A stretch of 29,206 nt of DNA from a virus (taxonomy: Duplodnaviria; Caudoviricetes). This document shows positions 1,038-16,422 of the stretch, piece by piece. The first letter of the stretch is position 1. Every line of letters starts with the position of its first letter. The stretch is taken from the IMG/VR virus record IMGVR_UViG_3300048598_000265, positions 1-29,206 of that record. The stretch is one strand, 5' to 3'. The position numbers and the translations under genes were made by a program. The notes beneath the pieces are model-generated. The model made no database searches and had not been told where the DNA came from. It saw only the letters and a list, made by a program, of their open reading frames with translations.

Positions 1038-2750
1038 TTACCAATTGTTCTTAGCATAATTCGATTGAACATATGTTATGCTTGAACTCCATGAAACTGC
1101 TTGCGACGATAAAGACGCATAAACGCCTATAATTTTATTCGCTCCATCAAATTGAATTGTTGAACTTGAAAATAATGTCCCAAACCAATTGCTTAAATAC
1201 GTTAGCTCAATTGCGCTATGACATTCTAAATAAACTTTAGCTGCTAAACTTATGTCTGCTGATGAAAATGGATATTCTTCACCCTTATATATAATATAAA
1301 CACCACCATATTTATCTTTTTTTCCATCTATCCTGGTATCGATCTTAGTTACTCCATTCACAAAAATTAAAATATCTCCGGATGTAACATCCAAATATAA
1401 CTTTGTTCCATAACCAAGAGTTAAAGAGTCAAAATAATATGTTCCAGATAAAAGTTCAATTGTCGAATATTGGCCTGTTGTAGCATCACCATACCATCCA
1501 GGAGCAATGGGGTCCTTCGGATGCCCTTCATACCCGATAGTAGGAAATGTCTTCTTTGTAGCCGTTAGGCCAGCTGGTGAAGTCGGGGGATTAAACGTGG
1601 TTAGCTTTGGATTGTCGTACTTGGTACAGGAAACTGGCAAACCCGATGGTGCAACATTTTTGTTTGTATCTGGAGGAGGATAGGCGGCGTTACTGATTGG
1701 CGTTCCAATATATATACCATTGCCGCTTGGAGCGCTGTTTGCAGTGACTCCATTCCCCCAAATGCTATTTCCGTATCCCATTGTAAGCGCCCCGCCAGCA
1801 TAACCATTTGTCATGATAGTCCCTCCATGCGCGGACGGTTCCGCCCCAGAGGTCCACGGCGTCCCTCCTCCGCCCATAGCCAGAGCCCCTTTTGTGTAAG
1901 CACTCCCAACAACTGTTATCCCATAGTTCAGTGTGATGTTACCAGTTGCATCAATGTCTCCACCAACCCTAGATTGGTTGTCCATTGATACAGTTTTGTC
2001 AGAATAAATAGTTCCACCGACTGTATTGGCATTGGGCAAAGAAACATCAGAATTTGATTTTAAATCTCCAGATATAGTAGCTGCCTGCGCCATTGTTACC
2101 GTTCCAACGGAGCATAAGTTACCCTTAATCTTTTGATTATAATATAAATTTGTTGTGCCAAGTGACGTGACATTGCCCGTGATGGTAGCCTGGGAAACTG
2201 TCAATGAGCCAACATACAAATCACCCGTTATTACAGCATCGCCACTAATTGTAACATCTCCAGACGATATCATAACTTTACCATCATATGTATTTGTTGT
2301 TGTCGGTGTAAATGTCAAAGTATCTGTTGACGACACTTGAAATTTTGCTTGATTTGGACCAGATACAGTTTGCCCAGTTGAAGTTACCGAAAGTTTATAA
2401 CTTGAGACATCACCCGAACAATTTGAACTAAGCGTAAAACTTCCAAGACCACCACCAATGTCAAATGTTCCATTCAAAGCAGAACATAAATCATCCGTAG
2501 TCTTGCTGCTAGAATTAATCATTGGTGTGTAATAAGCAACAATTCCATTTTTATATTCTAGACCAGAGTATGCTAAATTTTTAGCTTGGTTCGTTTGGTT
2601 AAACATTAATTCATTTACAACTGCGACAGATGATATTTTTTGTATCCCGATAGCAAGCGCACCAACAGCCAATATTGCCAAAATAACAAACAACAGCGTT
2701 GATCCGCAGCAGCATTGTTCTTTGTTTATTATTTTATCATCAACGGACAT
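1038..2750 (-). CDS. PilX/MshP/GspK-like minor pilin fused to a beta-helix (bactofilin/polymer-forming-like repeats) adhesin domain
   Basis: N-terminus G|STLLFVILAILAVGALAIGI (class III-like signal lacking Glu5, as in the PilX class), then NQTNQAKNLAYSGLEY (PilX-type QA...A.SG.E motif). Repeated ~17-aa units such as ITGDLYVG, ITGNVTSLG, IKGNLCSVG, ISGDLKSNS, VGGDIDATG. AT-rich. Overlaps the upstream gene by 11 nt. Confidence 0.75.
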   Translation of the reverse strand: MSVDDKIINKEQCCCGSTLLFVILAILAVGALAIGIQKISSVAVVNELMFNQTNQAKNLAYSGLEYKNGIVAYYTPMINSSSKTTDDLCSALNGTFDIGGGLGSFTLSSNCSGDVSSYKLSVTSTGQTVSGPNQAKFQVSSTDTLTFTPTTTNTYDGKVMISSGDVTISGDAVITGDLYVGSLTVSQATITGNVTSLGTTNLYYNQKIKGNLCSVGTVTMAQAATISGDLKSNSDVSLPNANTVGGTIYSDKTVSMDNQSRVGGDIDATGNITLNYGITVVGSAYTKGALAMGGGGTPWTSGAEPSAHGGTIMTNGYAGGALTMGYGNSIWGNGVTANSAPSGNGIYIGTPISNAAYPPPDTNKNVAPSGLPVSCTKYDNPKLTTFNPPTSPAGLTATKKTFPTIGYEGHPKDPIAPGWYGDATTGQYSTIELLSGTYYFDSLTLGYGTKLYLDVTSGDILIFVNGVTKIDTRIDGKKDKYGGVYIIYKGEEYPFSSADISLAAKVYLECHSAIELTYLSNWFGTLFSSSTIQFDGANKIIGVYASLSSQAVSWSSSITYVQSNYAKNNW

Positions 2751-13093: not shown

Positions 13094-13115
13094 TTTTAAA
13101 AACATGGAGGACTCC

Positions 13116-13520
13116 ATGGAAGACTCTCTGAAAGCAGCCTTGGAAATCGTGAAGGCCCAAGCCTCGGTCCGCAATATGACCGACGAGGAAGTCATCTCGA
13201 TGCTCAAAAATGTGGCTGCTGGCATCCAAGCGGCCGCAGATGCCTCCCAGGTTAGCTACAGCGAGGGAGGAAGCGATTCCCCCGCTGTCGACCCGGCCAA
13301 GGCAATCAAGGATCGCTCTATCACCTGCCTCGAATGCGGAAAGACTTTTAAGGTGCTCACCAAAAAGCATCTCACGGCGCATGGCCTCACGCCCGACGAG
13401 TATCGGGCCAAGTGGGGCTACAAGAAGGGCGCGCCCCTGTGCGCCAAGGGCCTGCAGCGCGAACGGCGCAAGAAGATGAAGGACATGCGCCTGTGGGAGA
13501 GGCGAAAAAAAGCTGAGTAA
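13116..13520 (+). CDS. mucR: Ros/MucR-family zinc-finger transcriptional regulator
   Basis: ITCLECGKTFKVLTKKHLTAHGLTPDEYRAKWG...PL; GGAGG RBS before the ATG at 13116. Confidence 0.92.
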   Translation: MEDSLKAALEIVKAQASVRNMTDEEVISMLKNVAAGIQAAADASQVSYSEGGSDSPAVDPAKAIKDRSITCLECGKTFKVLTKKHLTAHGLTPDEYRAKWGYKKGAPLCAKGLQRERRKKMKDMRLWERRKKAE

Positions 13521-13577
13521 TACCTATAGCAACTTTAAGAGGCCCGGCCGACGCTGGACCGGGCAGGGACGGATAAA

Positions 13578-13826
13578 ATGCGGCAACATGACCTGCACGC
13601 AGCAATAGCTGAGCGTATCGGACCAGAACTGGCTACAGCAGCTGTTGACGCCATCATTGCCAATTGGGGGGGAGGATCACAAATGATCCCCAATGGGAGC
13701 AAAACGGCCATCATAAATAGAAACCAAGAAATTCGCAGACTTGCTTCAGATGGAATCGACCATGAATCCATCGCCAAACGATTCGGTCTCTCCGTGAGGC
13801 ATGTACAGCGCATCCTTGGCAATTAA
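13578..13826 (+). CDS. Mor/C-family transcription activator (probable late-gene activator)
   Basis: IG......AII..WGG...IP dimerisation motif, RNQEIR, and HTH IAKRFGLSVRHVQRIL; located just before the lysis and packaging genes. Confidence 0.85.
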   Translation: MRQHDLHAAIAERIGPELATAAVDAIIANWGGGSQMIPNGSKTAIINRNQEIRRLASDGIDHESIAKRFGLSVRHVQRILGN

Positions 13827-14266: not shown

Positions 14267-15223
14267 GTGGAAGTCATGAGTTTCGAGCAGGCCGACAAGT
14301 TCCGGATGCGCTGGGAAGGTGGTCTCTCCGACGATGCGGCCGATCCGGGTGGCATCACGAACTACGGCGTCTCATTGCGTTTTTTGCGGTCGCTCGGACA
14401 CGACGTGGACGGCGATGGCGACATCGATGCCGACGATATCCGATGCCTCACCCCCGCGGGTGCGGCCCTGATCCTGCGCCAGGAATTTTGGACCTGCCAG
14501 GATCTGGATTCCTTCCCCCCGCTGCTCGCCATTGCCCACTACGACGCTTCGGTCAACTGCGGCCGCGGCCGTGCCATGCGATGCTTGCAGGCGGCCTGCA
14601 ACGCTTTCGACGGTCCCAAGATCGACGAGGACGGCCGGCTTGGGCCAAAGACACGGTCCCGCATTGCTGACCCCGGCCTCAATGACGAGCTCCTTGCGTT
14701 GCGGGTCATTCAGGAGCGGCAGGCGTTCTACAAGCGTCTGGTGTCGGAGACTCCAAAGTTCTCCAAATTCATCGACGGGTGGATGAATCGCACCAATAGC
14801 CTCATCAAGTATTTGCAGGAGATTCCCCATGGGCAAGAGGCTTCTGTCCTTGGCCAGCCAGTTCCTGGAGGGGATGCGACACAAGATCAACCCGGTACAC
14901 CTGTACTGCCGACTGATGGACTGCGGGATGAGCCAGCCGAGAGCCCTGCGGTGGTCCAGACGGTGGGAAGCCCTGTACAAGCGCCTGGGGTTCTGACCAT
15001 CGGCGGAGTTCGACTCAGCAAAAAGTTGTGTGTGACCGCCTTGGGTGCGCTCGTCATTGTGGGAAATTCCGTAGTCCTGCGTTTTTTCAACGTCGGACTG
15101 AACGATTTCCAAATCCAGAAACTCGGCGATCTTCTTACCTGGTACATCGGCGTCCAAGGCGGCTTCGACATCTCCAAGCCGTTCATTCAGTCTCTTTTTA
15201 CGCAGGGAGGCCGCCGTGCGTAA
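14267..15223 (+). CDS. GH108 endolysin (plus PG-binding domain) fused via a long linker to a holin-like membrane domain
   Basis: GH108 motif EGGLSDDAADPGGITNYG; EF-hand-like DVDGDGDIDADD; FIDGWMNR; C-terminal LSKKLCVTALGALVIV...YIGVQGGFD. The start may be the ATG at 14276. Confidence 0.88.
   Translation: MEVMSFEQADKFRMRWEGGLSDDAADPGGITNYGVSLRFLRSLGHDVDGDGDIDADDIRCLTPAGAALILRQEFWTCQDLDSFPPLLAIAHYDASVNCGRGRAMRCLQAACNAFDGPKIDEDGRLGPKTRSRIADPGLNDELLALRVIQERQAFYKRLVSETPKFSKFIDGWMNRTNSLIKYLQEIPHGQEASVLGQPVPGGDATQDQPGTPVLPTDGLRDEPAESPAVVQTVGSPVQAPGVLTIGGVRLSKKLCVTALGALVIVGNSVVLRFFNVGLNDFQIQKLGDLLTWYIGVQGGFDISKPFIQSLFTQGGRRA
14829..14996 (+). CDS. Nested +1-frame 55-aa cationic protein inside the endolysin linker
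   Basis: AGGAG RBS at 14818-14822, ATG at 14829, TGA at 14994-14996: MGKRLLSLASQFLEGMRHKINPVHLYCRLMDCGMSQPRALRWSRRWEALYKRLGF. By my count 48 of 55 codons end in G/C, unlike the overlapping endolysin frame. Confidence 0.7.
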   Translation: MGKRLLSLASQFLEGMRHKINPVHLYCRLMDCGMSQPRALRWSRRWEALYKRLGF

Positions 15224-15583: not shown

Positions 15584-16174
15584 ATGGTGATGCCCGATAT
15601 CCCCGTCAGGCCCTACCTCTACGGCGGGCGGGAGCTGTGCGTCACCGGCGCCTGCCTGCTCACGGCGTCTTCGGACTGGCTTGGTCGGGCCATCCGTTTT
15701 TTCGAGGGCGACGACGCTTGGTGCAGCCATGCGGCACCCGTGGTCCGGTTCCCGGCCGACATGGTGGGCGCCGAGCGCGTGACGCTGATCGAGGCCCTGG
15801 AGCATGGACTGACGCCGACCTACCTCAGCCACTACTTCGGCGACGACTTCGACGGCCGGCTGTTCTTGTTCACGCCCTGGGCCCTCACGCCGCAGATTCA
15901 GACAAAATTCCGCGCATGGATGCTCGACAAGATGTTCAGCCAGACCGGGTACGATTACGGCTCTCTCGCCCGCCAGGTTTCCGGGCATGCCCAGGAGGAC
16001 GACGCGCTCCTTTTTTGTTCCGAGGCATGGGGCATAGCCGCTGAGGCCGCCGGCCTGCCGCGGCTCACCGACGCTCCCCAAGGCCTGGCGCCGCAACCAC
16101 CCGACATCCCCCGGTGGTGGGCTGGCAAGGTGGTGGAGCTTATCGGGCCGTTCAAGCCGCAGGAGGCGGCATGA
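15584..16174 (+). CDS. Permuted papain-like NlpC/P60 (YiiX/YaeF, C92) amidase-like protein
   Basis: His motif WCSHAA precedes YDY...LFCSE (catalytic Cys), which is the permuted order. Confidence 0.75.
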   Translation: MVMPDIPVRPYLYGGRELCVTGACLLTASSDWLGRAIRFFEGDDAWCSHAAPVVRFPADMVGAERVTLIEALEHGLTPTYLSHYFGDDFDGRLFLFTPWALTPQIQTKFRAWMLDKMFSQTGYDYGSLARQVSGHAQEDDALLFCSEAWGIAAEAAGLPRLTDAPQGLAPQPPDIPRWWAGKVVELIGPFKPQEAA

Positions 16175-16422
16175 ACGATGTGGAAATTACACGTCTCGCC
16201 GAAGCCATAGCGGCCAAGATCAGTGAGGGGAAATGCGGCCAAGCGGCGTGTTGCGCAAAATGTCCCATCACCCCGGAAGAGCACGCCGAGCAGCACCGGG
16301 CGATGAAGGGGGCGCTTAAAATGCGCTCCATCGTGGTGGTCAAAATCTTGGAGTGGGGCGCCATTGCCCTCGTCGGGTGGTTCGTCATGCGGATGGGATG
16401 GGTCAACGCTCCAAAGCCGTAG
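16171..16422 (+). CDS. Small protein with a C-terminal TM helix (holin/antiholin-like candidate)
   Basis: GGAGG RBS and ATGA overlap; MNDVEITRLAEAIAAKI...ILEWGAIALVGWFVMRMGW. Confidence 0.6.
   Translation: MNDVEITRLAEAIAAKISEGKCGQAACCAKCPITPEEHAEQHRAMKGALKMRSIVVVKILEWGAIALVGWFVMRMGWVNAPKP

Follow-up and report, generated by a model that had tools for sequence, protein, structure and literature searches.

A conserved small gene nested out of frame in the linker of an endolysin-holin-like fusion from a likely Solidesulfovibrio phage

The endolysin gene analyzed here contains a second reading frame between its catalytic and membrane parts, and it raises three questions: whether this inner frame encodes a real protein, which of the two overlapping frames is the older one, and whether the small product takes part in lysis. 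The window, that is, the whole 29,206-base virus record, carries RusA, ROS/MucR, Mor, endolysin, terminase subunit, P22-like portal, and capsid genes in the neighborhood of the locus. One of the closest lysins, P0004, bears the name Solidesulfovibrio carbinoliphilus, and a 97%-identical copy sits within a 1.2-Mb contig; the window is therefore likely a temperate phage of Solidesulfovibrio. Elsewhere in the window, a 570-aa low-GC gene with bactofilin-like matches (1038-2750, minus strand) is probably cargo, and the ROS/MucR regulator gene (13104-13826) adjoins that of the Mor-type late activator. Scans for promoters and terminators gave chance-level results only.

The features of the cassette are collected in Table 1. 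Its outer gene combines a catalytic domain, a linker, and a membrane segment in one ORF, with no separate start for the tail, as in Enc34-type endolysins. The sequence-only reading had described a lysin-holin fusion, and this description is borne out insofar as the tail is holin-like by profile comparison: the window tail itself matches the phrog_9987 holin weakly (E 0.027), and related tails match the same family with E 1.5e-08 (L233) and E 4.9e-07 (L231), while the other two tail types matched no holin family in PHROG. In L001/L004, L143, and L144, relatives at 97% identity, this frame is likewise uninterrupted. A sequencing artefact was ruled out by independent assemblies in which the fused frame is open and by one run contig spanning the region; the gene call P0001 is not independent evidence, since its contig (L145, 2461 bp) lacks 1 nt upstream. 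The next gene encodes a predicted, unannotated lipoprotein that is kept after the tail in both fused and unfused cassettes and has no Pfam or PHROG match. Tested as a unimolecular spanin, it showed a lipobox, a best mature hydropathy of only 0.88, and no C-terminal transmembrane helix, which is not the pattern of that class; it may be the true outer-membrane factor. The second small membrane protein also matched no family in Pfam or PHROG.

Table 1. Coordinates of the lysis cassette in the window, and the loci in which the small gene is nested
Feature	Position	Strand	Evidence or remark
Endolysin-holin-like fusion, 315 aa, frame 0	14276..15223	+	ORF; phrog_315 endolysin, E 1.6e-37
Catalytic part: Glyco_hydro_108 (aa 11-96) and PG_binding_3 (aa 100-173)	14306..14794	+	Pfam, E 5.4e-17 and 1.8e-09
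Shine-Dalgarno AGGAG of the nested gene	14817..14821	+	Sequence; Gln-Glu codons in the last helix of the lysin
Lysin-frame linker, aa 185-240, 54% Pro/Ala/Val/Gly, net -6; likely the overprinted frame	14828..14995	+	
Nested +1-frame gene, 55 aa, net +8, HxxNPLHxYCRL family	14829..14996	+	Homologues; purifying selection
CAA (Gln187), possible site of a lost lysin stop	14834..14836	+	Inferred only
Holin-like membrane tail, aa 241-315, without its own start	14996..15223	+	Hydrophobic segment 250-268
Predicted lipoprotein, lipobox LPAC, no C-terminal TM segment	15216..15581	+	Next cassette gene, conserved
Second small membrane protein, another holin candidate	16174..16422	+	Hydrophobic segment 53-71
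Nested GH108 loci			Window, its 97% relative, L005, L006
Nested Phage_lysozyme loci			L013, L043, L184, L215, L216, L229, L231, L232, L246
Nested phrog_873 locus			L233

The nested ORF and its AGGAG site were confirmed, with a spacing of 7 nt between that site and the ATG, and a recount reproduced the earlier figures of 48 G/C-ending codons among 55 and of 11 K/R against 3 D/E residues. Across the overlap the lysin frame has 26 of 56 codons ending in G or C, versus 142 of 184 in the catalytic part. As a codon control, we used 539 overlapping 55-codon windows from 10 other gene segments of the window: none reached the +1-frame GC3 of 0.87, and none was as low as the in-frame GC3 of 0.46. Within those 10 segments and the lysin, 14829-14996 is also the only nested ORF of at least 45 aa that has both an ATG and a Shine-Dalgarno sequence. 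Its ends had been said to fall exactly at the domain borders, which holds approximately: the PG_binding_3 match stops at residue 173, the conserved last helix ends near residue 182, the nested ATG is in codon 185, and the nested stop precedes the hydrophobic segment by about nine codons. Three helices are predicted for the product (AlphaFold model, pLDDT 82), and their amphipathicity is moderate (muH 0.47-0.56). The peptide has no hydrophobic signal segment and the outer gene is an endolysin, so that the pair does not have the makeup of an embedded o-spanin of the Rz1 type.

The same arrangement was found in 14 of 14 fused lysin loci for which DNA was available (Table 1), where the lysin frame crosses the small gene and continues as a membrane tail, and where three tail types are mixed with three catalytic families (GH108, Phage_lysozyme, and phrog_873). 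At all 14 loci, the small gene has a Shine-Dalgarno sequence, a start codon (ATG or GTG), and a frame free of stops, and in the stretch searched none has a start for the tail. Two lysins known without DNA were excluded from this set: P0005 is compatible with the +1-frame motif (score 60.8; 0/150 shuffles), and P0003 is marginal (35.1; 1/150 shuffles; short-lysin maximum 34.0). The comparison of selection in both frames, proposed by the sequence-only reading as a check, was made by alignment-based pN/pS in 13 loci and 77 pairs (1 of 78 was skipped, as it had no differences). The ratio is below 1 in 76/77 pairs for the small-gene frame (median 0.52) and in 1/77 for the lysin frame over the overlap (median 1.48), and identity is greater in the small-gene frame in all 77; because the pairs share ancestry, this pattern gives a direction, not a probability. 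Both SNPs listed within the overlap for close relatives (2/2) leave the small protein unaltered and replace an amino acid of the lysin. Both frames are open, and only the small-gene frame is under amino-acid constraint.

It could be argued that the +1 frame is the fossil of a swallowed gene whose product is no longer made, given that the motif Tyr is replaced in several nested copies and that the Shine-Dalgarno sequence could persist as Glu codons through ordinary Glu coding. Retention of the start, the ribosome-binding site, and a stop-free frame beneath three different upstream domains, together with +1-frame constraint even between close pairs, makes such a relic very improbable. The nested-gene architecture itself we regard as close to certain, and the small gene, having its own ribosome-binding site, is likely translated. 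In a tree on 42 columns, a group of phage copies only, with an SH-aLRT of 97, took in 7 of the 8 nested rows and vanished when Trp was masked; trees of this length cannot decide between one and several origins of nesting.

To what kind of protein, then, does the nested gene belong? A word-index search with the single peptide returned only the self-match. A phmmer search of the whole library gave 48 other homologues, and a profile search gave 460 database matches, so that the stand-alone homologues sought by the sequence-only reading do exist, as host and viral copies. A DNA scan of species genomes yielded 408 confirmed matches, and the 80 listed are mostly from Desulfovibrionaceae and other sulfate reducers. 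Two or more copies are present in 25/25 Solidesulfovibrio genomes searched, and the family occurs in 30 of 301 genomes sampled across the phylum. The chromosomal copies examined are stand-alone genes in varied neighborhoods, and their GC3 tracks the locus, from 0.09 to 0.96. Near-invariant residues are H, N, P, H, Y, C, R, and G. The small gene is, by these matches, a member of a widespread, unnamed, and real family. Pfam, NCBIfam, and PHROG hold no model for it, with no family common to more than 2 of 49 members, and the fold searches gave no match that points to a function: Foldseek had none at E<=0.001 (best VIA Z 5.3), the best E of a PDB profile search was 0.19, and ESM Atlas (best 0.77) gave no function. 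No match was found in GenBank plasmids. A zinc site formed by His18, His24, and Cys27 was considered and set aside, as the Cys is replaced in the PAP2 fusions described below. Several single observations concern individual copies. One chromosomal copy (L134:3010-3171) lies between mraY and murD, a single case; two Solidesulfovibrio chromosomal paralogues were examined (L180-L183 and L188; L110 and L124), and these are found downstream of a ferredoxin gene and divergent from the cobU region, convergent with UvrD; and P0074 is a 200-aa protein with the small domain twice in tandem.

Unfused forms of the cassette bear on the relative age of the two frames. In L224, the lysin, small gene, membrane gene, and lipoprotein gene are separate, and the genes of this three-part cassette are linked by stop-start overlaps; the L224 lysin belongs to phrog_873, the PHROG family of the fused L233 lysin, and its membrane gene resembles the window-type tail on visual comparison only (BLASTP E 0.15; no HMM match). 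In prophages with SLT lysins, the lysin stops before the small gene and the tail homologue is a gene of its own (L225, E 2e-06); in L226, the tail-homologue gene is followed by a homologue of the window's lipoprotein gene. In L252, a tail-like gene directly follows the lysin, with no small gene between them. Most GH108 homologues are about 190 aa long and end where the nested gene starts. As unfused cassettes with lysin, small gene, and membrane gene are extant, it is likely that the small gene came first and that the linker of the lysin is a read-through frame printed over it. This agrees with the earlier proposal that the +1 frame is ancestral, which the pN/pS values also favor, and it reverses the earlier title of an overprinted gene: one frame is old, widespread, and constrained, and the other, the linker, is restricted and unconstrained. 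In the SLT-lysin prophages (L178, L217, L218, L219, L225, L226, L236, L028, and L047), the small gene is fused in the other direction, with a hydrophobic segment that follows it and a domain that has no annotation.

Read-through comes easily: among 26 stand-alone copies of the small gene with high GC3, 19 have no stop in the equivalent lysin-type frame, so an open lysin frame alone is no sign of selection for fusion, and synonymous shuffling leaves the frame open in 13-50% of cases. A CAA lies two codons past the nested start in each of the three GH108 lineages, near where the short relatives end, and a single base turns it into TAA silently for the small gene. That this CAA marks the former lysin stop is suggestive only; the T4-lysozyme-type and other non-GH108 loci have no CAA at the equivalent place. 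In the scenario that we favor, a lysin would have lost its stop and been read through a GC3-rich small gene in a usually stop-free frame, and the extended lysin would then have fused with the holin-like gene that followed, with loss of the start codon of the latter. Later exchanges around the common junction would have involved both catalytic domains and tails, and the acidic Pro/Ala/Val/Gly-rich linker would be a by-product of stop loss and fusion. Gene nesting would here be caught in the act, as separate and fully embedded forms of one family both exist.

With regard to function, the sequence-only reading had called the product disruptin-like, meaning a peptide that reaches the outer membrane, weakens it, and replaces spanins, as does gp28 of phage phiKT. 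Gp28 has 56 aa and a net charge of +7 and is encoded between endolysin and holin (10.1101/515445), the same order as in L224, and the nested peptide is similar in length and charge and predicted to be helical; nested copies range from +7 to +10 with 1-5 Trp, and no Rz-like match was found among the window genes scanned. The general features of disruptins (<80 aa, net charge of +4 or more, helical) are seen in the peptide, yet also in 74/78 genome-locus members of the family, and in the gp28 study itself a size and charge filter retains 528 candidates in 91 genomes (10.1101/515445). Rz-like spanins adjoin the copies in L029 (E 5.7e-16), L060 (1.4e-37), L220 (2e-04), and L221 (1.2e-03), and the cassette of the window, with its lipobox ORF at 15216, is not that of a phage without spanin or lipoprotein, whereas phiKT has no lipoprotein at all. 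The multiple stand-alone chromosomal genes of Solidesulfovibrio do not fit such a role either, and the near-invariant residues are more suggestive of a specific surface than of a generic cationic peptide. The disruptin-like label is thus weak, and we consider this activity improbable. As to sequence homology with gp28, a tblastn search of 50,697 GenBank phage records gave no match at E<=1.

A lysis role in a broader sense is retained in part. A PHROG lysis match lies within about 1.3 kb of 13 of 36 de-duplicated stand-alone viral copies, or of 16 if DUF5675 is counted, whose lysin role is deduced from its position; chance adjacency to lysis genes is roughly estimated at 10%. In 20 of the 36, no lysis match is nearby (in part of the survey, 150 ORFs of 213 candidates were scanned). 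The lysin neighbors span seven families (GH108, Phage_lysozyme, SLT, phrog_873, Amidase_2, Glucosaminidase, and Peptidase_M15_4), which makes the lysin an unlikely partner of the small protein. Two or more Trp residues are present in 27/34 lysis-linked copies versus 2/54 genome-locus and 2/20 other phage copies, a contrast that is largely due to one clade, the support of which is lost on masking Trp. At five loci (L254-L258; G573, G510, G477, G440, and G602), probably of one lineage, the small domain forms the N terminus of PAP2-family membrane phosphatases of about 360 aa, in which the conserved Cys is replaced, and a TM-like segment follows the core in 14 of 152 members. These fusions to membrane proteins, including a PAP2 lipid phosphatase, suggest an accessory lysis factor at the inner membrane. 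Among 29 short GH108 lysins in Desulfovibrionaceae genomes, none has the small gene within about 1.5 kb, which implies that it is dispensable for such cassettes. A gene for a DksA/TraR-like zinc finger directly follows the small gene in L179 and L054 (PHROG) and in L220, L221, and L223 (by eye).

The chromosomal copies beside ferredoxin, cobU/UvrD, MFS, and tilS genes, and the viral copies located after capsid genes or Mor or before DksA/TraR-like genes, could also point to a small host-derived regulator with no part in lysis, a late-operon passenger trapped by the fusion that binds a host protein or nucleic acid. The conserved motif and basic helices would suit such a protein; the adjacency to lysins of seven families, the Trp-rich phage subgroup, and the membrane-protein fusions speak against it, and we regard this reading as unlikely. 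In the reading that we favor, the small protein would be a lysis accessory of the inner membrane with its action at the holin step, a claim with somewhat less than an even chance of being right. According to this model, one late transcript would yield a lysin whose tail anchors it in the inner membrane, with a flexible acidic linker in between, as well as a three-helix, Arg/Trp-rich small protein. The latter, bound to the inner leaflet or to a membrane protein of the host, would tune the holin step, either its timing or the passage of the tethered catalytic domain. The explanation as a whole, namely an older nested gene whose translated product would assist lysis from the cytoplasmic face of the inner membrane, has in our judgment slightly less than an even chance. 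More speculatively, and at most as a tentative proposal, the small protein may represent a new class of lysis accessory drawn from a host inner-membrane family, with the DNA acting as a dual-coding tether and a domain-swap junction while separate and embedded forms are both extant. The locus offers a conserved gene inside endolysins that annotation has overlooked, a member of an unnamed small-protein family present in every Solidesulfovibrio genome searched, and, for phages that infect sulfate reducers, a candidate additional lysis factor that is open to testing; in an experiment, the two frames can be told apart by a single silent base change.

Nested lysis genes, endolysins with C-terminal membrane domains, a holin-endolysin fusion, gp28, and Lcc6 are individually known already. 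Neither an out-of-frame gene in an endolysin linker nor the present family was found in the literature covered, which took in few subscription journals. The endolysins of Enc34 and M4Lys have the same order of N-terminal catalytic domain, linker, and C-terminal membrane domain; the GH108 domain in the window is a different catalytic family, and those phages have a separate holin and spanins, with no nested gene described in the accessible text (PMC8943055). The TpeE-holin/endolysin of Clostridium sporogenes is a natural fusion as well, in the opposite order with the holin first and in a Gram-positive host, and the available portions of its description report no nested gene (PMC9527704). The likeness to gp28 lies in size, charge, and helicity and in the endolysin-peptide-holin order of the unfused relatives; gp28 is encoded by a gene of its own, has hardly any homologues, and comes from a phage that lacks lipoproteins (10.1101/515445), whereas the present family is large, includes host copies, and co-occurs with spanins and lipoproteins. 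The functional model favored here is closest to Lcc6 of LambdaSo, a small extra lysis factor at the holin step that has a TM helix and is encoded outside the lysis cassette, the likeness being one of proposed function (10.1101/2024.01.23.576932). In-frame second products of endolysins and the embedded sgl genes of ssRNA phages are likewise hidden lysis products; as far as the consulted parts of these reports go, the former are in frame and the latter newly evolved, in contrast to the hidden gene here, which is likely older (PMC9430671, PMC3111421, PMC7693330). Like lambda Rz/Rz1, the locus has a small gene that is embedded in a lysis gene and read in its +1 frame; unlike in that pair, the small gene does not encode a lipoprotein and lies within an endolysin-holin-like fusion (PMC6139136). 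In the accessible part of the spanin survey, no spanin family has both embedded and separate members, and loss of an upstream stop codon is proposed as one route from separate to embedded genes (PMC6139136). The present small-gene family has members of both kinds, and its pattern fits the stop-loss route that the survey could only propose.
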